Shown here one piece after another: positions 6,602-53,469 of a DNA stretch of 64,000 nt. The DNA is from Gammaproteobacteria bacterium. Its GTDB lineage: Bacteria > Pseudomonadota > Gammaproteobacteria > Eutrophobiales > Eutrophobiaceae. The stretch spans positions 40,505-104,504 of the forward strand of contig JBFFIE010000002.1 of assembly GCA_041556555.1 (NCBI GenBank), written 5' to 3'. Position 1 is the first letter of the stretch. Every line of letters starts with the position of its first letter. The notes under the pieces were generated by a model, which ran no database searches, was not told the origin of the DNA, and worked only from the letters and a program-made list of their open reading frames with translations. The position numbers were made by a program, and so were the translations under genes.

Positions 6602-7658
6602 TGCAAATACAGAGAATAAGAAAGGCAATGAAATAAAGAAAGATCTGGTAAAAATACTCGATCCTAATTCTGCCGAAATGAGTAAACGTTTTGCTTTTCT
6701 GCTCAAGCTTGTAATCGGCCTCTTCCTGATCAGCATCATATTAATTTTGTCTGCCAGCTACTATATGCAACGTCAAATCCATGCGGTCTCGGATTCAATC
6801 AGTAGTAATGCTGATATGACAAGAGCAATAAACTCTGCGATTGAAAGCAATACAAAACAGCTTCGCTCAGAACTTGAGCAATTACGTATTCAGCAACTTG
6901 AACAGGGAAATTCTCTGGCCAGGCTCTACCAGAAGTTCCCCAAGGATAATCTCGAGTGGGCACTGGCCGAGACAGAATACCTTTTGATTATTGCCAGTCA
7001 GCGTCTGTTGCTGGAAAAAGATGTCGCCACGGCCATTGCCGCCATGACAGCTGCCGACAACAGACTGAAAGATCTCGGTGATCCGGCGCTGATACCGGTC
7101 AGAGAACAACTGGCTGCAGATATCAATGCATTACGGGCAGTAAACAATGTAGATACCAGTGGCCTGGCTATATACCTGGCAGATCTCATTGAGCGCTCGG
7201 ATTCTCTGCCTCTGAAAGCCATGAAACCTGATGCTGCTGCGAGCAACGGTGAAACCGATCAAACACAGGTGGAAGAAAGTCAGGATAAAAGCTGGCGTGA
7301 TATACCTGCAATCATCTGGAATGAGCTCAAGGGCCTGGTGGTAGTCAAACGCTCAGGCGAAACCCGCCAGGCCTTGTTATTGCCTGATCAGGAATACTTT
7401 CTTTATCAGAATCTGAGACTGGAACTTGAAAATGCACGGCTGGCAGTATTAAGACGTGATACTGATAACTTGCAAGCATCGGTCAGCCTGCTGCTTGCAT
7501 GGATACAGGAATATTTTGATCTGAGCAATGCTGCGGTCAGCAATATTGTGACCACCCTTGAAAAAATGCAAACACTGAAACTCGATCCGAAAATTCCTGA
7601 TATCAATTCATCGCTTGAAACACTCAGGGCGTTTATGCGTGAAGAAAATTCAGGCTAA
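6594..7658 (+). CDS. hemX: HemX-family membrane protein (putative uroporphyrinogen-III C-methyltransferase-like)
   Basis: 354 aa. Lys-rich N-terminus, one TM segment, long coiled-coil periplasmic part. Position between hemD and hemY. Confidence 0.75.
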   Translation: MSDANTENKKGNEIKKDLVKILDPNSAEMSKRFAFLLKLVIGLFLISIILILSASYYMQRQIHAVSDSISSNADMTRAINSAIESNTKQLRSELEQLRIQQLEQGNSLARLYQKFPKDNLEWALAETEYLLIIASQRLLLEKDVATAIAAMTAADNRLKDLGDPALIPVREQLAADINALRAVNNVDTSGLAIYLADLIERSDSLPLKAMKPDAAASNGETDQTQVEESQDKSWRDIPAIIWNELKGLVVVKRSGETRQALLLPDQEYFLYQNLRLELENARLAVLRRDTDNLQASVSLLLAWIQEYFDLSNAAVSNIVTTLEKMQTLKLDPKIPDINSSLETLRAFMREENSG

Positions 7659-7681
7659 ATTGAAAACGGTATAATCGACCA

Positions 7682-8908
7682 GTGAAACCTCTCATTGTAT
7701 TAATAATTGCACTGGCAATTGCCGCTGCAGTAGGCATGATCGCTGTCAGTGATTCCGCTAACATATACATCACGTTTTCAGACTGGACTATCCAGTCGTC
7801 CCTCGTGTTGTTCGTTATTATTATTATCCTTGCATTTATTGTTATCTATTTTTCATTACGCGCGTTATTCCGGATGTGGAATATGCCGGGAAATTTGCGG
7901 CGCTGGCGCAGACAAAGAAGTCAGCGTTTATCCGAGAGATATCTGAGTAAAGGCTTGCTGTCACTGGTTGAGGGAAACTGGAAATCAGCGGAAGCAAACC
8001 TGGTCAAGGGTGCGAAATATTCCGAAACGCCGTTAATTAATTACCTTTGTGCAGCGAGAGCAGCCCAGAGAGAAGGCCGTATAGATAAACGCGATCATTA
8101 CATCAGTCTGGCCCATGCCGATGCCCCCGATTCGCAGGTTGCCATTGGTCTGACTCAGGCAGAGTTACAGATTAACCAGAAGCAGACAGAGCAGGCACTG
8201 GCTACATTGATGAACCTGCATGAGCAGGAGCCTGACCATGGTCGTGTCAAGTTAATGCTATTAAAGACCTATACTGAACTTGAATCATGGCGGGAAGTCC
8301 TTGCCCTGTTACCTGGCCTGCAAAAATCGGGGTTACTGCCAAAGGAAAATATTGTGGCAACACAGCTCAAGGCCTATGCTGGCTTGATGAAAAAGGCGGG
8401 GACCCAGTCAGATAGGGAAGCCCTGGAGTCCATCTGGCAAAAAATCCCCAGGAACCTGAAAAAGGAATTGCACCTGCTTGAGGTCTATACGTCAGAAAAA
8501 ATAATTTTTAACGATACTGAGAACTGTGAACCTTTGCTTAGGAAGGCGCTTAAGGACAGATGGGATCAGAATATCCTTCGTTTATATGGTCTCGTTGAGG
8601 GGAAAGACGCTGCAAAACAACTGGCGTTTGCTGAAAGCCTATACTCAAGTCATGCACGTGATCCGGTTTTGTTACTGACGTTGGGGAGGTTGAGTATGCA
8701 AAATGGCTTGTGGGGCAAGGCAGCCAGCTACCTCAAGGACAGTATTCAAATAGAACCCTTGCCGGAAACCTACAGGGAGTTTGCCCGCTTGCTTGAGCGG
8801 CAGGGTGATTACGCTGCAGCATCAAGCTACTATCAACATGGTCTTGTACTTGCAACCACAACCCAGCAGGAACAGGCCAGGTTGATTGGCAGAGGTGAAA
8901 AACATTAA
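7682..8908 (+). CDS. hemY: HemY-family TPR membrane protein
   Basis: 408 aa, GTG start. Two N-terminal TM helices and a C-terminal TPR region. Fourth gene of the hemCDXY cluster. Confidence 0.75.
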   Translation: MKPLIVLIIALAIAAAVGMIAVSDSANIYITFSDWTIQSSLVLFVIIIILAFIVIYFSLRALFRMWNMPGNLRRWRRQRSQRLSERYLSKGLLSLVEGNWKSAEANLVKGAKYSETPLINYLCAARAAQREGRIDKRDHYISLAHADAPDSQVAIGLTQAELQINQKQTEQALATLMNLHEQEPDHGRVKLMLLKTYTELESWREVLALLPGLQKSGLLPKENIVATQLKAYAGLMKKAGTQSDREALESIWQKIPRNLKKELHLLEVYTSEKIIFNDTENCEPLLRKALKDRWDQNILRLYGLVEGKDAAKQLAFAESLYSSHARDPVLLLTLGRLSMQNGLWGKAASYLKDSIQIEPLPETYREFARLLERQGDYAAASSYYQHGLVLATTTQQEQARLIGRGEKH

Positions 8909-8914
8909 TGCTGG

Positions 8915-9943
8915 TTACTTGCCCCCGCTGGTCTGGGTGGCAAACTCAAATGAATCTGAATAAATAAATTCTTCTGACAGACCGCGTTCGGTGAAATTAT
9001 CAACCACTGCGTGGACCATGGGTGGTGGGCCGCAGGCATAGACTTCAAATGGCGAGAGATCGCTGAAATCATCCAGTACGGCCTCGTGGACCAGCCCGGT
9101 TCTGCCTTGCCAGGCATCGGATTGTCTGGGTTCCGAGAGAACTGGTATGTAGCGCAGAGTTTTCATCTTTATTGCCCAGGACTCAGCCAGTTCGTGGAGA
9201 TAAAGATCAGATTTTGAGCGGGCGCCCCAGTAAAAATGGATTTCCCGATCAAGCTTCTTGTGCTGAATGTTCTCAACGATACTTTTTACCGGGGCAAAAC
9301 CAGTGCCGCCCGCAATCATGATGATTGGCCGTGAAGATTCTTCCCTCAGGAAAAAGCTGCCCAAAGGGCCTTCAAATCTTAACAGGGATTTCTCCCTGAG
9401 CTTGTTGAATGCATATTCCGAGAATACGCCACCATCATAATGTCGGATATGTAATTCCAGGTAATTATCATCCTGCGGTGAATTGGCAAGGGAGAAAGAT
9501 CGACGTTTGTTTCCCTTCATCAGGATATCAATGTACTGGCCCGCCAGGAATTGCAGGCGCTCACTTGAGGGTAGTTTCAGGTAAAGTCTGAGTACGTCGT
9601 GGTTTAACTTTTCAATCTTGTTTACCCGGCAGGGCAACTTGCGGATTACCAAATCACCCACGGCCTCAATCTGGCGACATTCGATACGAAGATCAGTGCG
9701 GGGTATTGCCTGGCAAAACAGGGCGTAACCTGAGGACTTCTCTTCATCCGTGATACCAGTCAGGGGAATATCGGTATATTCAATCTGGCCCTCTAGCAGT
9801 TTTCCCTTACAGGTACCACAGGCACCATTTCTGCAGCCATAAGGCAATCCGATACCTTCGCGTAATGCCGCAGAAAGCACCGTCTCATCTTTTTCTGCAG
9901 TGAAGGATTTTTTATCAGGTTCGATAGTAATCTTGAAACTCAT
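8915..9943 (-). CDS. 2Fe-2S ferredoxin-fused FAD/NAD(P)-binding oxidoreductase (AscD / benzoate-dioxygenase-reductase-like)
   Basis: 342 aa. N-terminal plant-type ferredoxin motif CRNGACGTCKG...C, an RxYS-like FAD site (RSFSLANS), and GGTGFAP NAD(P) binding. Confidence 0.8.
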   Translation of the reverse strand: MSFKITIEPDKKSFTAEKDETVLSAALREGIGLPYGCRNGACGTCKGKLLEGQIEYTDIPLTGITDEEKSSGYALFCQAIPRTDLRIECRQIEAVGDLVIRKLPCRVNKIEKLNHDVLRLYLKLPSSERLQFLAGQYIDILMKGNKRRSFSLANSPQDDNYLELHIRHYDGGVFSEYAFNKLREKSLLRFEGPLGSFFLREESSRPIIMIAGGTGFAPVKSIVENIQHKKLDREIHFYWGARSKSDLYLHELAESWAIKMKTLRYIPVLSEPRQSDAWQGRTGLVHEAVLDDFSDLSPFEVYACGPPPMVHAVVDNFTERGLSEEFIYSDSFEFATQTSGGK

Positions 9944-9987
9944 GAATTATCCGGTTGATAAATAAAATCAGGTGATAACAGGATAGG

Positions 9988-10650
9988 TCAGTTTATGCTT
10001 GGAATGCTTCTGGCACTGCTCAACCAGGCAAGCAAGGGCATCCACTGTTCCCTGTCATACACTGTTTTTGACGGGGCCATTTCAAAAATAGTCATGCCCT
10101 TCTCTGCTGCATGAACGTAATTTTGACTGGCACGTAGCATGGTTATGTATGGGACCTTCGACCCATTAGGTAGTTTCAATGTTTCCAGATAGTATTCAAG
10201 TTTTACGCCTGATAATGTATCTTCCCTGACTCGGTTAGCTAAGGTTGCAAGCTTTACCTTGCGGTTGATCTCTCTTCTTTTCTCTATCAGTTCCCGTAAA
10301 AAACGTTCTGCCGCACGTACATCAATGGCAGAAGGCATCATCGGCATAACAATTGTCTGTGCGGCCCTGGTTATGCTCACCAGTTTTTTGTCATGAATTG
10401 CCGCCGGCGAATCAATCACCAGAATTTCGGTATCACGATTAATTTCCAGTTCGTTACTGTGCATTGCTGCCAGTTCAATCTTTGCCAGGTAATCGGGCCT
10501 TGCTGCCAACCAGTCAGTGCTGCTTCCCTGCGGATCACAGTCAGCCAGTGAAACCTTTTTTCCTTGCATGGCAAACCAGCCAGCTATATTGGTTGCCAGC
10601 GTGGTTTTACCGCAACCGCCCTTGGGGTTTAGTATCAAAATACTACGCAT
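9988..10650 (-). CDS. ParA/MinD-family P-loop ATPase (orphan, no parB partner visible)
   Basis: 220 aa. Deviant Walker A ILNPKGGCGKTT with the signature lysine; Walker B ILVIDSP. Confidence 0.85.
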   Translation of the reverse strand: MRSILILNPKGGCGKTTLATNIAGWFAMQGKKVSLADCDPQGSSTDWLAARPDYLAKIELAAMHSNELEINRDTEILVIDSPAAIHDKKLVSITRAAQTIVMPMMPSAIDVRAAERFLRELIEKRREINRKVKLATLANRVREDTLSGVKLEYYLETLKLPNGSKVPYITMLRASQNYVHAAEKGMTIFEMAPSKTVYDREQWMPLLAWLSSARSIPSIN

Positions 10651-45233: not shown

Positions 45234-46289
45234 ATGCCTGTGATCCCTGGTTTTATCAGGCTGGCCTTGTGTATGCTTTGCCTGTTTGCCTTTGCTGAAA
45301 CAATCAAGGCTGACCCGCCGTTACCCGATGAAGCCTGGACATTTACGTTCCGGTTTGAAAATGACCTTTTTGCAGACACTGACAGGAATTACACCAATGG
45401 CCTGAAATTCAGCTGGATATCCCCGGACCTGGAACGCTTTCGTGACAGTGGCGTGCTGCCGGCATGGGCAAAAAACTGGATCAGCAAGTTGCCTTTCAGC
45501 GGTAAAGAGGGCTTGCAAAGAAACATCACCTTTTCCGTAGGCCAGTTGATATACACACCAACCGATATCGAACGACGCGACCTGATAGTTGATGACCGTC
45601 CCTATGCCGGCTGGCTGTATTCAGCCTTTTCGTTTCACAACAAGAGTTATCGGCACCTGGATACGATTGAGTTTCAGTTTGGTGTGGTCGGACCTTTATC
45701 CCAGGCCGAGGCGGCCCAGGACCTGATCCATGATTTGCGAAACATTCCCAAGGCCAATGGCTGGGATAACCAGTTAAAGAATGAACCTGGTCTGGTGCTG
45801 GTTTATGAGAACAAGTCCCGTGTTGTTCCGCTGAAAACCTTTGAAGGCTGGGGCTTCGATGCCATCACTCATTACGGCGGTGCGGCGGGAAATGTGTACA
45901 CTTATCTTAATACCGGTCTGGAGATGCGGTTTGGCTGGAACGTGCCTACGGATTTCGGTACTTCGCTGATCAGGCCCGGCGGTGAGACCAATGCACCCAC
46001 TGATAGCAATGATCCACGCTATACCAAGGTCGGACATGGCTTCAGTCTGCATGCATTCGCCGCTACATCTGCGCGCCTGGTATTGAGAGATATTTTCCTT
46101 GACGGTAACACCTTTCGTGACAGTCACAGTGTCGACAAGGAATGGCTGGTCGCCGATTTTGTATTGGGTTTAAGTATGATTATTGATCGTTTCAAATTCT
46201 CCTATGCCCAGGTGGTGCGAACAAAGGAATTTAAAGGTCAGGACAGTGGTCATAATTTTGGTTCAATCAGTTTATCGATTACCTATTAA
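45234..46289 (+). CDS. Outer-membrane lipid A deacylase-like protein (LpxR/DUF2219 family)
   Basis: 351 aa. Signal peptide, FENDLF...DRNYTNG N-terminal motif, beta-rich, ends in aromatic-rich strands. Confidence 0.55.
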   Translation: MPVIPGFIRLALCMLCLFAFAETIKADPPLPDEAWTFTFRFENDLFADTDRNYTNGLKFSWISPDLERFRDSGVLPAWAKNWISKLPFSGKEGLQRNITFSVGQLIYTPTDIERRDLIVDDRPYAGWLYSAFSFHNKSYRHLDTIEFQFGVVGPLSQAEAAQDLIHDLRNIPKANGWDNQLKNEPGLVLVYENKSRVVPLKTFEGWGFDAITHYGGAAGNVYTYLNTGLEMRFGWNVPTDFGTSLIRPGGETNAPTDSNDPRYTKVGHGFSLHAFAATSARLVLRDIFLDGNTFRDSHSVDKEWLVADFVLGLSMIIDRFKFSYAQVVRTKEFKGQDSGHNFGSISLSITY

Positions 46290-46307
46290 ATAATTACGGA
46301 GTCAATA

Positions 46308-46871
46308 ATGACAAGAACAAGTGTGGTTTGCTTTGGAATGGTTATATTCCTTGCTGGTTGTACGTTTAACAGGCTGGCCAGCAAGGTTGAACTTCAGGAG
46401 CCCACATTCAGTTATCTTCGCCATGAAGTGACTTCTCTTAATGAAACCAAGGCGGATGTTAATTTTATAATCAATGCTTATAACCCCAACCCGGTAGGGC
46501 TGAAAAACGTTTATGTTGATTATGCCCTGTTAACAGAGGGAAGCCAGTTTTTAAAGGGGCAGGGTCTGCCGTTGAAACTGAATCCTGCCGGGGATACGGA
46601 AATTACAGTGCCAACAGAGATCGTGTTTATTGAATTGATCAATTCACTGGGTCCGGTGGTAGAACGCATACTGAGGACCGGCGACTATTCTGTTCCGGTC
46701 ACTATTAATGGTGTGATATATGGCAAGCCCACGCTTTATGATGAATTCGAAGAGGGCACTTCATTGTTATCCTTTAACTGGGAATTCAGCCGTACAGAAA
46801 ACATTCCATTGCCGGAACAGCAGATTAAAAATTTTATTATGCAGATGATGTTGAAGCAGAAGATACATTGA
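46308..46871 (+). CDS. LEA14/WHy (late-embryogenesis-abundant type 2)-domain lipoprotein
   Basis: 187 aa. Lipobox FLAGC, WHy-domain-like beta sandwich (NPNPVGLKNVYVDYALL). Confidence 0.55.
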   Translation: MTRTSVVCFGMVIFLAGCTFNRLASKVELQEPTFSYLRHEVTSLNETKADVNFIINAYNPNPVGLKNVYVDYALLTEGSQFLKGQGLPLKLNPAGDTEITVPTEIVFIELINSLGPVVERILRTGDYSVPVTINGVIYGKPTLYDEFEEGTSLLSFNWEFSRTENIPLPEQQIKNFIMQMMLKQKIH

Positions 46872-47265
46872 TGGTGATCTCTTTGAAAGACTGATTTTCC
46901 AGCAAATAACATCGTATGTCTGGTACGGGACCAGCCAGAGAGATTATAAAATAATAAACATCGGGATAAGCGGCCAGGTCCCTGTCGGTTTTCGAGGGCA
47001 CTGCTACACTGTCCGGATGGCTATGATAGATTCCGGCCATGACTTCTGATCTTTCCCGCATGGTTCGTATGGCATCAATCTGTTCCTGCGGAGACATCAG
47101 AAAACGCCGTTCTTTTTCCTTATCGATATTCGTCACCGGATAGATCGAGGTCAGGGCATTATTTCTTGCGCCGAGCAGGCCGCACACCTCCACATCCGGT
47201 ACAGAGACGGCGTGATCGACCATCTCCTGCCAGAGTTCAGGTGGCAGCGCGATGACTTGCCTCAT
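46837..47265 (-). CDS. JAMM/MPN+ (Mov34) metalloprotease
   Basis: 142 aa. E...HSHPDSVAVPSKTD gives a complete JAMM motif (E, HxH, x7, S, x2, D). Overlaps moeB by 29 bp. Confidence 0.8.
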   Translation of the reverse strand: MRQVIALPPELWQEMVDHAVSVPDVEVCGLLGARNNALTSIYPVTNIDKEKERRFLMSPQEQIDAIRTMRERSEVMAGIYHSHPDSVAVPSKTDRDLAAYPDVYYFIISLAGPVPDIRCYLLENQSFKEITINVSSASTSSA

Positions 47266-48016
47266 TCAGGTCACTCTTCCCGCACTCGGGACAGTTCGGA
47301 TCCTTGTTCAGCTTTGCGGTATGCCATTCCATATTCATGGCGTCCAGCAACAACAGTCTCCCTTCCAGTGTATTGCCGATGCCCATGATGAGTTTCATGA
47401 CCTCACAAGCCTGGATGCTGCCGATGATTCCCAGCAATGGCGCAATAACACCGTTAGCGGTACAGGACTGGTCTAGTTCTGATTCGCTGCCGTAGAGGCA
47501 GCGGTAACAGGGTGAATTGTCATTGGCCAAATTATAGACACTGACCTGGGCCTCGAACCGGATTGCAGCACCGGAAACCAGCGGTGTCCTGCTCCTGACA
47601 CAGGCCGCATTGACGGCAAAACGGGTGCTGAAGTTATCACTGGCGTCAACGACCACATCAGCTCTGGAAACTTCTTCCAGCAATTCCTTCCCATCCAGTT
47701 TATGGTCGATGGTCGTAATGTGGACATCCGGGTTTAACACTGAGAGGTATTCACTGGCGGACTCGACCTTGAGTTTGCCTATATCCGGTGTAGTGTGAAC
47801 AATCTGTCGTTGCAAGTTGGACAGATCAACCTTGTCGTAGTCCACCAGAACCAGCTGACCGATACCACCCGCTGCCAGGTAAACTGATGCTGCTGATCCC
47901 AGTCCGCCGATCCCGATGATCATGACCTGGGCCTTCGCGAGTTTCTCCTGTCCTTCCGCATCAATTTCCGGCAGCATTATTTGCCGGCTGTAACGTAATA
48001 ATTGTTCGTCATTCAT
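47237..48016 (-). CDS. moeB: Molybdopterin-synthase adenylyltransferase-like E1 (MoeB/ThiF family)
   Basis: 259 aa. LRYSRQI, GxGxxG (IGIGGLGSA), CYRC...CPEC zinc tetrad. No rhodanese domain. Downstream of hemA-prfA-prmC as in Pseudomonas. Confidence 0.85.
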   Translation of the reverse strand: MNDEQLLRYSRQIMLPEIDAEGQEKLAKAQVMIIGIGGLGSAASVYLAAGGIGQLVLVDYDKVDLSNLQRQIVHTTPDIGKLKVESASEYLSVLNPDVHITTIDHKLDGKELLEEVSRADVVVDASDNFSTRFAVNAACVRSRTPLVSGAAIRFEAQVSVYNLANDNSPCYRCLYGSESELDQSCTANGVIAPLLGIIGSIQACEVMKLIMGIGNTLEGRLLLLDAMNMEWHTAKLNKDPNCPECGKSDLNEASHRAAT

Positions 48017-48210
48017 GAAGATTATGAATCTCTGGGCTCGTATTTTTGCCAGAGGTGGTGCCGCCCCTGGTTTGTAACCTGCATACCCTGTCTGGCCCGC
48101 CGGATGTAGATTGCACGCAGGCGTTGTAACAGACCGCTGCGCTGTTCAAGATTGAACTTCTGGTTTTCAGACATAAATTCATGGAATGCTTGAAATAACC
48201 TCATAAGTTA

Positions 48211-49065
48211 TCAAGGCTTGAATTGCCCGCCGCTGACCCGTTCATGTCCGGCATAGTCTCTACGGGTAAAAATTCCCGTAAAACCATTTTCTTGTAACAG
48301 CTTATGCACACTAACAGCCTGATCATAACCATGCTCGAGCAAAAGCCAACCTTGGAGATTCATAAAGTTTTTGGCCTGCTGGCAAATGACCCGAATGGCA
48401 TCCAGCCCGTCAGGTCCGGCTATCAGGGCGCTGACGGGTTCGTGTTTTATATCTCCTGATAGTAGATGGGGATCGTTCTCCGAGATATACGGTGGATTGG
48501 AAACAATCACATCAAAACGGCCCTCCACGTTTGTAAACCAATTGCTTTGAATAAAATCAATCTGGTTCAGTTGCAGGCGCTCAGCATTTTCTCTGGCAAT
48601 AGCGAGGGTGCTTTCGTTAATATCAGTAGCAACAATCCGGCAATGTGGACGTTCACTTGCTATTGCAATCGCGATAGCGCCACTGCCACTGCCAAGATCA
48701 GCAATTCTCCCGGGTTGATTTAGTGGAATGCGATCCAGTACGGACTCAAGCAGGCACTCCGTGTCCGGTCTCGGAATCAAGGTATCTTGATTGACTGTAA
48801 GCTCAATAGACCAGAATTCCTTTTTACCGGTGAGATATGCGACCGGGTATCCCGTTTGACGTTGATCGATCAATTTCTCAAATGCCGACTGTTGCCCGGA
48901 TTGCAGGGTTACCTCCGGGTATGCATACAATCGACTCCTGTCGGAGCCCAGTACATGGCAGAGCAAGACCTCAGCATCGAGCCGGGCGCTATCAAACCCG
49001 GTCAGTTGTGACCGTGCTTGGTCCAGAGCCTCACTGATTGTCAGGGCAGTCATGAAATTATGCAT
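48211..49065 (-). CDS. prmC: Release-factor glutamine N5-methyltransferase
   Basis: 284 aa. SAM motif [12 protein letters not shown] and NPPY catalytic motif. Confidence 0.9.
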
Positions 49066-50143
49066 TCAATGCAGAGAGCTGATCTGCCTGATACTCGTTA
49101 ATCAATGGATCGATGATCATGTCCAGGTCACCTTCCAGTATTTCTTCAAGACTGTAAAGCGACAAATTGATGCGATGATCAGTGACGCGTCCCTGCGGAT
49201 AGTTATAGGTACGAATGCGTTCTGAGCGGTCGCCCGAGCCAACCAGGTTACGACGGTTTTCGGCCTGCTCGGCGATCTGTTTTTCACGCTCTGTGTCGAG
49301 AAGTCTGGCCTTGAGGAATGACATGGCCTTGGCACGGTTCTTGTGCTGAGAGCGTTCGTCCTGGCATTCAACTACGGTATTGGTAGGCAAGTGGGTGATG
49401 CGAACAGCCGAATCCGTTTTGTTGACATGCTGTCCCCCTGCGCCAGAGGCGCGAAAAGTATCGATGCGCAGGTCGGCCGGGTTTATCTCTATATCTTCAA
49501 TATCATCAACTTCCGGCAGTACGGCAACTGTGCAAGCCGAGGTATGGATTCTGCCCTGCGATTCGGTTTCAGGAACACGTTGCACCCGGTGGGCACCTGA
49601 TTCAAATTTCAGTCTCGAGTAAGCACCATCACCTATCACGCGCAGGATCACTTCACGGAAACTGCCGGTCAGGTCGCCGGGTGAAGCACTGAGCACCTCT
49701 GTTTTCCAGCCACGTGCTTCAGCATACTTTGCGTACATGCGCATCAATACCCCGGCAAATAATGCAGCCTCCTCGCCACCAGTCCCGGCACGTATTTCCA
49801 GATATATATTACTGTGGTCAGCCGGATCTCTTGGTAACAACAGGCGTTGCAATTCCTGCTCCAATGTTTTGTTTTTCTGTTCTACTCCATGCAATTCTTC
49901 TTCGGCCAGAGCGCGCATTTCCTTGTCTGAATCTTCAAGCATTTCCCGGGCTGAAATGATATTGCTACGATTTTGCTGGTAGTCGATGAAACAATTCACT
50001 ACCGGTCTTATCTCGGCATATTCACGGGACAAATCACGAAACTTTTTTTGATCACTGATGATTGATGGATCAGCAAGCAGTGCATCAAGTTCCTGCAAAC
50101 GTTCAGAAATGGATTCCAGTTTTTTTAATAATGAGTCTTTCAT
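49058..50143 (-). CDS. prfA: Peptide chain release factor 1
   Basis: 361 aa. PxT-type RF1 motif and GGQ ([22 protein letters not shown]). Confidence 0.95.
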
Positions 50144-50199
50144 GAATAAATAATAAGGTTGGATACACCAGTCTCAGGCAAGCGGTTGCAACTGACTGG

Positions 50200-51480
50200 C
50201 TACTTGTCTGATTTTTTGTGGAGATTGTCCAGCTTCAGATTGAAAAGTTCCTGCGCAGCAAGCAGCAGTTCCTTTCGACCCTCGGTGCCAGCGAGTCTCA
50301 GCTGGGCAGTAGGCTGGTGTATGATCCGGTTGGTCAAAGTATTACTGAGTTCCTGAATTACTTTTTCCGGGTCTGCACCAGCGCGAAGTTTTCTTCGTGC
50401 ATCTATCAGAGTGTCTTCATGAATATCATAGGCCTGTTCGCGGAGTGCACAAATAGTGGAGACAGCATCCAGTGAATTTAACCAATCCATAAATTCCAGG
50501 ACCTGGATATTAATAATCTCTTCCGCCTGGACGGCTGCCTGTTTCCGATTGCGCAGGTTTTCCTGAATCACATCTTTTAAATCATCCACTGTATAGAGAT
50601 AAATATCTTTGAGTTCCCCGGCCTCCGGTTCAATATCACGTGGAACGGCGATATCCACCATAAACATCGGTCGATGTTTCCGGGTCCTTATGGCACGTTC
50701 AATTGCGCCCTTGCCCAGAATGGGCAACTGACTGGCCGTAGATGAAAATACGATATCAGCTTCAGCAAGATGCGAGGGTATGTCTGCAAGAGGAATTGCA
50801 TAAGCGGAAAATTCCTGTGCCAGTTTCTGGGAACGTTCCACCGTGCGGTTGGCTATGATCATGCGCTCCAGTCCGTTTTCGTGTAAATGCCTTGCTGCCA
50901 GCTCGATGGTTTCGCCGGCACCTATCAACAAGGCGGTCCGCGTTGATAAATCCCCGAAGATTTGCTGTGCCAATCTGACGGCAGCAAAGGCAACAGACAC
51001 GGGATGGGCGCCAATCATGGTACTGGAACGGATTTCCTTGGCCACCCGGAAGGAGTGCTGAAACAACCGGCTCAGGTATTTGCCAATGCTGCCGGCATTT
51101 ACGGCAATCTGATAGGCACGTTTCAGTTGACCCAGAACCTGGGGTTCACCCAGGACCATTGAATCCAGTCCGGAAGCAACGCGCAAAATGTGTTTGACAG
51201 CATATTCGTCCAGGTGGCGGTAAACAAAAGGTTGCAGTTGCTCATGCTGCAACCCATAGTGGTCTGATAACCAGTGCAATAGGCTGGGATCAGTGGGCTG
51301 GTCGAGATGGCAATAGATTTCGGTCCGGTTGCAGGTTGATAGTATGGCCGCCTCAGCCACCCCCCGCTCCCGGGTCAGGTGTGTCAGGGTCTCAGGTACT
51401 GTGTCCTCGACAAAACTGATCCTCTCCCGTAATTCAATGGGGGCTGTAGCATGATTAACACCAAAGGCGAGAAGTGACAT
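50200..51480 (-). CDS. hemA: Glutamyl-tRNA reductase
   Basis: MSLLAFGVNHATAPIELRE matches the E. coli HemA N-terminus. CNRTEIY active-site Cys. NADPH-binding domain. Confidence 0.9.
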   Translation of the reverse strand: MSLLAFGVNHATAPIELRERISFVEDTVPETLTHLTRERGVAEAAILSTCNRTEIYCHLDQPTDPSLLHWLSDHYGLQHEQLQPFVYRHLDEYAVKHILRVASGLDSMVLGEPQVLGQLKRAYQIAVNAGSIGKYLSRLFQHSFRVAKEIRSSTMIGAHPVSVAFAAVRLAQQIFGDLSTRTALLIGAGETIELAARHLHENGLERMIIANRTVERSQKLAQEFSAYAIPLADIPSHLAEADIVFSSTASQLPILGKGAIERAIRTRKHRPMFMVDIAVPRDIEPEAGELKDIYLYTVDDLKDVIQENLRNRKQAAVQAEEIINIQVLEFMDWLNSLDAVSTICALREQAYDIHEDTLIDARRKLRAGADPEKVIQELSNTLTNRIIHQPTAQLRLAGTEGRKELLLAAQELFNLKLDNLHKKSDK

Positions 51481-51687
51481 ACAATTCAATAACGTATCTG
51501 TTATTCATAAAATTCTGAGCGAAGCCTCGCTGGAAAACAAGCAATTTTGCGCATTACGTCTTAGTAAAGTCAGGTATTAGGTGCTAGGATAAAAAAACAG
51601 GCTGTTTAAACAAGACGTTAATTAAAGGGAACGTTTCACCCCGGTATCGAGTCAATCCCTCTGGAACCACCAAGACACATTAATTTA

Positions 51688-53469
51688 ATGAACGGTATAT
51701 CGACCCTGTTCTGCAGAAAAATACCAGCCCGCGCCATGACTCTCCTGCTGCTCACACTGGCTGCGGGATGTGCCGGCCTGTCTGACAGGACCAAAAGCCA
51801 GGGCCCCTCGAGTGCCGTCAGCAGCCAAACTGCCGAAACCACCAGTGACAGAGTCCCCGCGGTTGAGTCGTCAACCCGTCCTGATATCGAGCTGACCGAG
51901 GATATACTCTACAAGCTGCTGGTTGCCGAAATTGCCGGTCAACGTGGCCAGCTGGATATAGCTGTTGATAATTACCTGGACCTGGCCGAGGAGACCCGGG
52001 ACCCCGAGATTGCCAGCCGGGCAACCCGTATCGCGGTCTATGCACGCAATGATGAGGCAGCATCCCGTGCCGCCAGGATCTGGGTCGAACTCGATCCAGA
52101 CAGCATCGATGCCCATCAGGTCCTTGCGGTACTCGCCGTGCGCAGGGGTGATCTGGACGCTGCCATGTCTCACTTCGAAATCATCCTTGCCCAGTCGGCA
52201 GGTTCCATGGATCAGAAACTCTGGGTCATCGCCAATCTGCTCGGCAAGGAAGATAATCATGATAACGTCAAGGCTGTCATGGAGAGACTGATGGAGGGCT
52301 ATCAGGATGATCCGGATGCTTTGTATGCCTATGCCCATGTCATGTCACGATTAGGTGATGAAGCAAAAGCAATGGAGATCCTCAGGCAGTTACTGGAAAT
52401 CGTGCCTGACAATACCAATGCCACGATCAGTTATGTTTCGCTTCTGCAACAGGATGGACAGACAGAGAAAGCACTTCAGTGGCTGGAAAAATCGATACAG
52501 CAAAACCCGGACAATATTAATCTCAGGCTGTTTTATGCGCGGTTCCTGACAGATATCAAATATTACTCTGAGGCCAAGAAACAATTTCAGGACCTATACG
52601 AAGTCGTGCCGGAAAACATTGATGTGCTCTATGCACTCGGGCTACTCCATTTGCAGGACAATGAGCTGAAAGAGGCCAGGACTTATTTTGAACAATTGTC
52701 TGAGCAGGGCGAGCGTGTTGAAGAAACCAGTTATTACCTTGGTCGGATTGCCGAGGAGGATGGTGATCTGGATCAGGCCATCATCTGGTATAGCAATTTA
52801 CAATCTGGCGCTAATTATTTTGATGCGCAGATTCGTGTTGGCCTGATCATGGCAAAACAGGGCAAACTGGAAGAGGCCCGCACTCACCTGCAGTCGATCC
52901 CTGCCCAGGGACCCGATCAAAAGACCATCCTGGTTCAGGCCGAGGGTGAATTGCTGGTAGAGGAAAAGCGCTACGAGGAAGCGCTTAAAGTTTACAACAA
53001 GGCACTGGACAAAAATTTCAATGCTGATCTGCTCTATTCTCGCGCCATGCTGGCGGAAAAGATGAATCGGCTGGATATCCTCGAAGATGATCTCAAGGCC
53101 ATTATTGAGAAAAACCCGGAACATGTGCAGGCTCTGAATGCCCTGGGATATACCCTGGCTGATCGTACTGATCGTTATGAAGAAGCCCACGACCTGATCA
53201 GTCAGGCACTGGCACTCAAACCCGACGATTTCTATATCCTTGATAGTATGGGCTGGGTTCTCTATCGCATGGGGCGTCTGGATGAGGCCGTTGAATACCT
53301 GAGGCGCGCGCTCAAGGAACGGGCCGATCCTGAAATTGCAGCGCATCTGGGTGAAGTGCTCTGGGTCAAGGGTGACAAGGAGGCAGCCCGCCAGGTCTGG
53401 GAAACCGCCTTAAAAGAAACCCCGGAAGACGCCCGCCTGCTGGATGTAATACAGCGTTTCAATCCGTGA
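51688..53469 (+). CDS. TPR-repeat lipoprotein (upstream partner of lolB)
   Basis: 593 aa. Lipobox LAAGCAG. Many TPR repeats. The start may be the downstream Met at 51736. Confidence 0.75.
   Translation: MNGISTLFCRKIPARAMTLLLLTLAAGCAGLSDRTKSQGPSSAVSSQTAETTSDRVPAVESSTRPDIELTEDILYKLLVAEIAGQRGQLDIAVDNYLDLAEETRDPEIASRATRIAVYARNDEAASRAARIWVELDPDSIDAHQVLAVLAVRRGDLDAAMSHFEIILAQSAGSMDQKLWVIANLLGKEDNHDNVKAVMERLMEGYQDDPDALYAYAHVMSRLGDEAKAMEILRQLLEIVPDNTNATISYVSLLQQDGQTEKALQWLEKSIQQNPDNINLRLFYARFLTDIKYYSEAKKQFQDLYEVVPENIDVLYALGLLHLQDNELKEARTYFEQLSEQGERVEETSYYLGRIAEEDGDLDQAIIWYSNLQSGANYFDAQIRVGLIMAKQGKLEEARTHLQSIPAQGPDQKTILVQAEGELLVEEKRYEEALKVYNKALDKNFNADLLYSRAMLAEKMNRLDILEDDLKAIIEKNPEHVQALNALGYTLADRTDRYEEAHDLISQALALKPDDFYILDSMGWVLYRMGRLDEAVEYLRRALKERADPEIAAHLGEVLWVKGDKEAARQVWETALKETPEDARLLDVIQRFNP

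Follow-up and report, generated by a model that had tools for sequence, protein, structure and literature searches.

We describe here a 64-kb stretch of DNA (the window) from an uncultured gammaproteobacterium, in which a run of co-directional genes headed by hemA and continued by prfA and prmC is closed by moeB, which codes for a MoeB/ThiF-type E1 adenylyltransferase, and by a gene for a JAMM/MPN+ zinc metallopeptidase (JAMM in the following; coordinates in Table 1). The two enzymes are complete, conserved and encoded in tight linkage, and their relatives occur in a carrier-linked genomic context. The pair is a conserved, ordinary-looking member of the known E1/JAMM sulfur-carrier class and reveals no new mechanism. 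We consider it probable, if by no means assured, that JAMM cuts after the Gly-Gly of a sulfur carrier encoded at a remote locus, thereby maturing or recycling it, and that MoeB then adenylates this carrier. A preliminary description of the locus had placed moeB after hemA-prfA-prmC and had reported a 29-nucleotide (nt) overlap between moeB and the JAMM gene; gene order, overlap and coordinates agree exactly with the open reading frames (ORFs) and, for the order, with the Pfam assignments, whereas the label of pseudomonad synteny has to be dropped, as the source is not a pseudomonad. A protein identical to that of the window is found in many metagenomes and on the metagenome-assembled genome (MAG) GCA_036525515.1, which likewise stems from an uncultured gammaproteobacterium, and public annotation lists the two proteins as 'M67 family metallopeptidase' and 'molybdopterin-synthase adenylyltransferase MoeB'. 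To collect related loci, one genome of each GTDB species was scanned, which gave 570 relatives; the best 80 loci among them were used. L-numbers (L001, L013 and so on) label the loci compared.

The peptidase matches the Pfam family Prok-JAB (PF14464) with an E-value of 4.5e-19 (68.8 bits, cut-off 25) and also passes the threshold of JAB (PF01398; 24.7 bits, cut-off 22.5). Its JAMM motif, E26 ... H81-S82-H83-x7-S91-x2-D94, is of the MEROPS M67 type and, as had been recognized before, complete, although the spacing had then been given as HSHP-x7-S, which is off by one (HSH-x7-S is correct). None of the motif residues varies across 27 homologues. In comparison with L013, whose JAMM is 93% identical, the ratio of non-synonymous to synonymous substitution rates (dN/dS) was 0.20 for JAMM, 0.11 for MoeB and 0.19 for PrmC. 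Judged by such sequence comparisons, the JAMM and MoeB genes are real and under purifying selection; a spurious or decaying ORF is ruled out by the invariant motif together with the dN/dS values. According to its AlphaFold2 (AF2) model, which reached a predicted local distance difference test score (pLDDT) of 91.6, JAMM has an MPN fold like that of deubiquitinases (DUBs). A Foldseek search with this model retrieved 2KKS (template modelling score, TM, 0.83) and, as the second-best structure, the PfJAMM1-SAMP2 complex 5LDA (TM 0.79/0.86), with BRCC36, Rpn11, AMSH and the bacterial ubiquitin-like protein (Ubl)-DUB complex 8TYX (rank 8) further down the list. A profile of the JAMM family searched against the PDB gave the same order at the top, namely 2KKS, an uncharacterised Desulfitobacterium protein (5e-31), followed by PfJAMM1. 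All characterised structural neighbours of JAMM cut after the C-terminus of a ubiquitin fold. As a separate observation, the JAMM protein of one Methylophaga MAG (L081, 9995-10405) has a Gln in place of the catalytic Glu (SPNQQVSGL vs E[VI][CS]G), while the sister Methylophaga loci L083, L088 and L066 retain the Glu; the substitution may mark an inactive variant, or it may stem from an error in the assembly.

The E1 partner matches Pfam ThiF (PF00899) at 1e-77 and surpasses the cut-off of the NCBIfam MoeB subfamily model NF004281 (PRK05690; 328.4 bits, cut-off 266). Since it stays below the equivalog cut-offs of both MoeB (TIGR02355, 289.9 vs 376.55) and ThiF (TIGR02356, 238.2 vs 275.25), and can be aligned over its full length with E. 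coli MoeB (1JW9, 236.7 bits) and ThiF (1ZUD, 233.1 bits) at practically equal scores, the name MoeB is to be understood at the subfamily level only. The protein carries the GIGGLG motif (residues 35-40), the two zinc CxxC pairs CYRC (170-173) and CPEC (242-245), and the conserved Cys185 of the crossover region; its chain stops about 12 residues past the second CxxC and has no rhodanese domain. As the genes with a Pfam annotation in the ±10 kb around it included no TusA or rhodanese either, the sulfur would have to be delivered by a separate sulfurtransferase.

The 29 nt shared by moeB and the JAMM gene fall wholly in the non-conserved 12-residue tail of MoeB, past the point at which E. coli MoeB ends, and a Shine-Dalgarno-like GGAAGAG is located about 9 nt 5' of the JAMM ATG. 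Further upstream in the run, prmC and the prfA stop overlap by 8 nt. A scan of positions 46200-51800 for promoters and terminators yielded nothing above chance. On the opposite side of the JAMM gene, a gene for a putative lipoprotein of 187 residues (46308-46871, + strand) converges on it with a 35-nt overlap of the 3' ends, so that an intrinsic terminator could not fit between them; the LEA_2 match of this lipoprotein is sub-threshold (24.9 bits vs 25.4).

Among the loci of the relatives, the order hemA-prfA-prmC-moeB-JAMM, with or without a gene of an unnamed family (X, see below) between prmC and moeB, recurs in about 30 gammaproteobacterial species. The full arrangement is hosted by Methylophaga (L066, L081, L083, L088), Sulfuricaulis (L033), Acidiferrobacteraceae (L024, L036), Thiotrichaceae (L034, L068), Chromatiales (L049) and others, and hemA-prfA-prmC-moeB-JAMM is kept at JAMM identities of 53%, 50% and 40%. 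The preliminary description had reasoned that loss or frameshifting of the JAMM ORF in relatives would speak against its proposal, and had suggested checking the conservation of the overlap and the JAMM phylogeny; the pair is retained in these species, and the other two points turned out as follows. Of the 55 loci in which a gene adjoins JAMM upstream, 51 have the stop codon of that gene 25-108 nt before the catalytic Glu codon of JAMM and, as roughly 66-75 nt are needed for the N-terminus, JAMM must begin within the preceding gene or right next to it. In a neighbour-joining tree, the gammaproteobacterial prmC-linked JAMMs form a single clade, apart from the JAMMs of ThiS-E1-JAMM loci and from the CysO-linked ones (Mec+ type), which fits vertical inheritance. 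The moeB-JAMM pair thus appears to have been passed on vertically across gammaproteobacterial orders. Where rearrangement or insertion has occurred after prmC (L024, L036, L041, L025), moeB and JAMM, often along with X, remain joined. As to genes 3' of JAMM, in two Methylophaga loci (L066, 2338-3672; L083, 10399-11724) a gene for a PmbA/TldD-family metallopeptidase, Pfam-confirmed for L066, follows with a 4-nt overlap, and in two others (L011, 6603-8161; L033, 10493-11068) a LemA gene lies directly 3' of JAMM, which in L011 is succeeded by a protein with a weak Pfam match to GIDE (E3-ligase-like).

The nearest JAMMs outside the Gammaproteobacteria, at 38-40% identity, are those of Desulfuromonadales/Geobacter, Nitrospirota and Planctomycetota. 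In these outgroup loci, a Pfam-confirmed ThiS-family gene is found directly upstream of E1-JAMM. The encoded carriers end in EFLYFMGGG plus 1-10 variable residues (R, C, SR, NVSN, SAAFPQSRR and others), and an extension past GGG calls for a trimming protease. Neighbouring genes encode MetY (an O-acetylhomoserine-sulfhydrylase-type pyridoxal phosphate enzyme), sulfite reductase, TusA and 3'-phosphoadenosine 5'-phosphosulfate (PAPS) reductase. A variant cluster in Phycisphaerales includes a PALP cysteine synthase and MnmA, and Chloroflexota loci carry CysO-JAMM pairs of the Mec+ type.

No such carrier gene accompanies the pair in the window. We found no beta-grasp-like ORF ending in GG or in GG plus an extension within the 64 kb, and profile hidden Markov models (HMMs) of ThiS-like and CysO/MoaD-like carriers, applied at E<=5 to the six-frame stop-to-stop translation of the window, gave no match. 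The 10 kb past each window end contained neither a PF02597 gene nor a match to these HMMs, so that the absence of a ThiS/MoaD-like gene noted in the preliminary description holds beyond the window as well. The same HMMs were without a match on 29 gammaproteobacterial loci (about 20 kb each, ±10 kb), phmmer with the MoaD and ThiS sequences of E. coli and the CysO sequence of M. tuberculosis as queries detected no carrier near the locus, and moaE, moaC and thiG were absent from the collected loci. A profile search with the extended ThiS-like carriers returned 7816 matches; among the 120 matches listed, names were of the Desulfuromonadales type or missing. From these sequence searches we infer that the carrier protein is encoded elsewhere in the genome.

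The short ORF between prmC and moeB had been noted previously as not ending in GG, and indeed it is no carrier of this kind; it is, however, not a random ORF either, but a truncated member of the conserved X family. X designates an unnamed family of about 135 residues whose gene separates prmC from moeB in most of the gammaproteobacterial loci and which comprises at least 284 members, all 'hypothetical' and without a Pfam domain. The family has 48 invariant positions, including H120-G-C-R-D124 and W130-R-x-Y133 toward the C-terminus. AF2 predicts a beta-alpha-beta-beta-alpha N-domain (pLDDT about 80-88, moderate confidence) followed by low-confidence helices, and the N-domain model resembles HMA domains (target-normalised TM 0.74, E 2.5e-3) without their usual CxxC. 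The 60-residue ORF of the window had no match in Pfam or NCBIfam. It aligns with the C-terminal end of X from L009 (35% identity over 57 residues, E=1e-8) and weakly with positions 79-133 of the X profile (E=0.34), the conserved Cys being missing; since this homology is solely to the C-terminal helical half, X is truncated in the window lineage. In L013, 59 of its 60 residues are identical, with 3 synonymous changes and 1 non-synonymous change. We rejected the possibility that the ORF, or X, is a cryptic ubiquitin-like carrier, because the fold predicted for the X N-domain is of HMA type rather than beta-grasp and the C-terminus of X reads WRKYL, not GG. A role of X as a MoeB accessory, for instance as a sulfur or metal relay, is speculation. 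In L093 (10402-11500), whose contig measures 2.27 Mb, a stretch of about 1.1 kb without a called gene separates X from moeB; several neighbouring genes look fragmented, and the gap may therefore be a long-read frameshift artefact.

According to the reading that we favor, JAMM and MoeB would both have as their target the C-terminal end of a ubiquitin-fold carrier of the ThiS/MoaD type encoded elsewhere. JAMM, as a zinc metallopeptidase, would hydrolyse the peptide bond directly past the carrier Gly-Gly, either to strip off residues that extend the C-terminus, or a partner fused to it, and so expose a free Gly-Gly, in the manner of QbsD, HcyD, CxnF and DRJAMM, or to free an amino acid still attached to the carrier after sulfur transfer, in the manner of Mec+ and HcyD. 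MoeB would adenylate the free Gly-Gly carboxylate on the way to the thiocarboxylate, and the overlap of the two genes would keep the enzymes co-expressed. Carrier identity and cleavage chemistry are putative in this scheme, and the pathway served may be that of molybdenum cofactor (Moco), thiamine, cysteine/homocysteine or another. Several points weigh against this reading. Classical MoaD and ThiS proteins end in a free GG and require no protease. Bona fide thiamine and Moco operons are without a JAB gene (Iyer et al., PMC1779556). No carrier gene turned up in the roughly 84 kb that include the locus, nor in the ±10 kb flanks of the 29 gammaproteobacterial loci, and with these searches negative no extended or fused carrier has been seen for pair-bearing genomes. 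Linkage to the E1 gene is also dispensable, as moeB is missing from four loci. In three of them (L016, Methylomonas, 9153-10405; L017, Methylococcaceae, 9034-10336; L020, another gammaproteobacterial MAG, 9116-10396) JAMM directly follows prmC with an overlap or a gap of at most 22 nt and without moeB or X, and in the fourth (L031, a Salinisphaeraceae MAG, 7111-10402) other genes occupy the 1.9 kb between prmC and JAMM. The JAMMs of these four loci nest in the gammaproteobacterial clade, so that moeB was lost or relocated from the locus.

Pairs of this kind are not without precedent. Iyer, Burroughs and Aravind catalogued in 2006 (Table 1, row 4b; PMC1779556) uncharacterised JAB + E1 pairs without a carrier, considered derivatives of a three-gene sulfur-transfer cassette, with Nitrosococcus and cyanobacteria among the hosts. 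While the preliminary description was right in calling the E1 and JAMM genes a genuine, tightly coupled pair, the pair is thus less unusual than it implied. As in row 4b, a stand-alone JAB sits beside a MoeB/ThiF-like E1 with no carrier, thiamine or Moco genes around; the row 4b E1, however, bears a C-terminal rhodanese, whereas that of the window is a short MoeB, and the row 4b pairs were described as sporadic in occurrence, which pointed to lateral transfer, whereas the pair described here resides within hemA-prfA-prmC and is apparently vertical. Held against rows 4a-4e as a whole, the window shows the JAB-E1 adjacency and lacks both a neighbouring carrier, an absence that row 4b allows, and a sulfurtransferase module, there being neither a fused rhodanese nor a nearby SirA/TusA. 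Row 4e describes sulfate-assimilation/O-acetylhomoserine sulfhydrylase clusters with a ThiS-like carrier, E1, JAB and SirA/TusA (PMC1779556), and the outgroup clusters of Geobacter, Nitrospirota and Planctomycetota described above belong to this row. The window shares with these a rhodanese-less E1 directly before JAMM and the same overlapping or abutting junction, whereas the row 4e loci add MetY, a GGG-extended ThiS-like carrier, sulfite reductase, TusA and PAPS reductase, none of which is near the window pair. Clusters of this type we take to be the HcyS-HcyF-HcyD-MetY homocysteine pathway of Wolinella succinogenes. In the Wolinella HcyS/HcyF/HcyD/MetY system, reportedly described by Krishnamoorthy and Begley in 2011, the JAMM protein is said both to trim the carrier and to release the product.

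A remote carrier and a link to MoeB/Moco have their best precedent in DRJAMM (DR0402) of D. radiodurans, a small stand-alone JAMM with its carrier at a distant locus, which cuts the MoaD-MoaE fusion DR2607 past Gly-Gly and thereby activates molybdopterin synthase (PMC8832034, PMC9916421); DR0402 has not been reported adjacent to an E1, whereas the window JAMM gene overlaps one. M. tuberculosis MoeZR illustrates that one E1 may serve the unlinked carriers MoaD and CysO (PMC3227635). The Mec+/CysO/CysM system resembles the reading given here, its JAMM acting at the C-terminal end of a sulfur carrier, but its linkage is the reverse, JAMM being linked to the carrier and a cysteine synthase with the E1 remote; CysO-linked JAMMs belong to a separate clade, and no CysO-like ORF lies beside the window JAMM. 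QbsD/QbsE (thioquinolobactin) and CxnF/CxnE (chuangxinmycin) are examples in which, ahead of activation by the E1, JAMM trims post-GG residues (CF or a decapeptide), with the E1 (MoeZ) remote in the case of CxnF/CxnE (PMC5925218); these are secondary-metabolite clusters with linked carrier and JAMM, whereas the context here is a housekeeping operon. The preliminary description had proposed a remote carrier with a precursor in need of processing or, failing this, a non-canonical role. The extended carriers of the relatives and the DR0402 and CxnF/CxnE precedents speak for the remote carrier, the processing of its precursor is presumed, and no evidence of any kind lends support to a non-canonical role. 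In the literature searched, of limited coverage, we found no publication describing the gammaproteobacterial hemA-prfA-prmC-moeB-JAMM operon.

A possible but unlikely alternative to carrier maturation is reversible protein modification, with MoeB-activated MoaD/ThiS proteins isopeptide-linked to target lysines and JAMM acting as the deconjugating isopeptidase. Like the SAMP/UbaA/HvJAMM1 and Thermus TtuB/TtuC/JAMM systems, the window combines one MoeB-like E1 without a dedicated E2 with a small JAMM; the top NCBIfam match of JAMM is a haloarchaeal desampylase model (87.4 bits), and PfJAMM1 was bound to SAMP2 in the second-ranked structural match. HvJAMM1 undoes a SAMP1-MoaE linkage (PMC4443979), TtuB conjugates build up in a T. 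thermophilus JAMM mutant (PMC3980101), and Iyer et al. predicted a conjugation mechanism for JAB-linked E1s (PMC1779556). A carrier with a free GG would need no processing, consistent with our finding no extended carriers. Unlike the SAMP system, however, the pair falls short of the equivalog cut-offs for desampylase (NF041370, 87.4 vs 130) and UbaA (NF047750, 258.1 vs 450), no E2-like or other conjugation component was seen in the neighbourhood, including the 10 kb past the window ends, and the closest relatives are part of metabolic clusters for sulfur assimilation whose carriers are extended, rather than of conjugation systems. We know of no bacterial example of conjugation of the TtuB kind outside Thermus, which counts against this alternative as well. 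An elaborated form of it, a housekeeping sampylation-like cycle in 'basal' Gammaproteobacteria in which MoeB attaches, JAMM removes, X acts as an accessory and prfA-prmC provides a tie to translation, would be a long shot; X would there be, for example, a sulfur relay standing in for rhodanese/TusA.

It also appears improbable that JAMM works independently of MoeB and Ubl carriers, being tied for instance to prfA-prmC and translation termination, with the adjacency of moeB a mere inherited order. The four loci in which JAMM follows prmC without moeB, all from within the gammaproteobacterial clade (L016, L017 and L020 with direct abutment), would be in line with such independence, as would the lack of a carrier near any of the gammaproteobacterial pairs (29 loci). 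Yet moeB and JAMM, often with X, have stayed together after separation from prmC (L024, L036, L041, L025), the outgroup JAMMs consistently adjoin E1s and carriers, and the characterised stand-alone prokaryotic JAMMs of similar size, together with the structural neighbours, all act on a Ubl C-terminus. E1 + JAB adjacency is, finally, also a mark of anti-phage defence systems, namely the Cap2/Cap3 module of the cyclic oligonucleotide-based antiphage signalling system (CBASS) and modules of the Bil or 6A-MBL type. Weak PADLOC matches (JAB at most 19.8 bits; E1-E2 75.7 bits, over residues 24-147, the adenylation core, only) and the appearance of 8TYX among the Foldseek neighbours point in this direction, but the E1 is a full-length MoeB without an E2 domain, the 6A-MBL cap2_3 model scored 47 against a cut-off of 320, no cyclase, effector, Ubl or defence gene is nearby, and the pair is found in a housekeeping operon inherited vertically across orders. 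The MoeB-type E1 without E2, the sub-threshold models and the housekeeping context exclude a CBASS/Bil defence module, which the preliminary description had not brought up, and the chance that any anti-phage module of this type is at hand is vanishingly small. Cleavage past the Gly-Gly of a remote sulfur carrier is the reading that we retain as the probable one.

Table 1. Coordinates of the genes and motifs of the window and of selected genes in the loci of relatives.
Feature	Coordinates	Strand	Remarks
hemA, glutamyl-tRNA reductase	50200..51489	-	Heads the co-directional run; GlutR_N, Shikimate_DH, GlutR_dimer (Pfam, identical gene in L001)
prfA, peptide chain release factor 1	49058..50143	-	PCRF + RF-1 (Pfam, in L001)
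prmC, release-factor glutamine methyltransferase	48211..49065	-	Pfam PrmC_N 1.1e-21, MTS 1.2e-19
60-aa ORF, truncated X remnant (C-terminal helical half)	48022..48204	-	Between prmC and moeB
moeB, MoeB/ThiF-type E1 adenylyltransferase, 259 aa	47237..48016	-	Pfam ThiF, NCBIfam PRK05690
MoeB motif sites	GIGGLG 47897-47914; CYRC 47498-47509; CPEC 47282-47293; Cys185 within 47450-47467	-	
Overlap of moeB 3' end and JAMM 5' end, 29 nt	47237..47265	-	Different reading frames
JAMM/MPN+ zinc metallopeptidase, 142 aa	46837..47265	-	Pfam Prok-JAB; closes the run
JAMM motif sites	E26 47188-47190; H81-S-H83 47017-47025; S91-x2-D94 46984-46995	-	
X genes	L034 1493-1897; L068 7392-7796; L049 8636-9043; L041 8788-9207; L009 4828-5250		
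ThiS-family carriers with FMGGG + extension	L029 8977-9189; L071 8981-9196; L062 8848-9084		15 others

Ubiquitin signalling has its prokaryotic antecedents in modules of E1, JAMM and a ubiquitin-fold carrier, several of which drive unusual sulfur chemistry leading to cysteine, homocysteine/methionine, thioquinolobactin or 2-thiosugars. The advance made here is a new member of, and a new genomic context for, a known class: one carrier-less E1 + JAB version is now placed in the hemA-prfA-prmC operon of many sulfur-oxidising and methylotrophic Gammaproteobacteria. With cultured Methylophaga among the hosts, a tractable system is at hand for a substrate search, and the substrate would tell whether housekeeping MoaD/ThiS pathways need proteolytic maturation or conjugation-based regulation.

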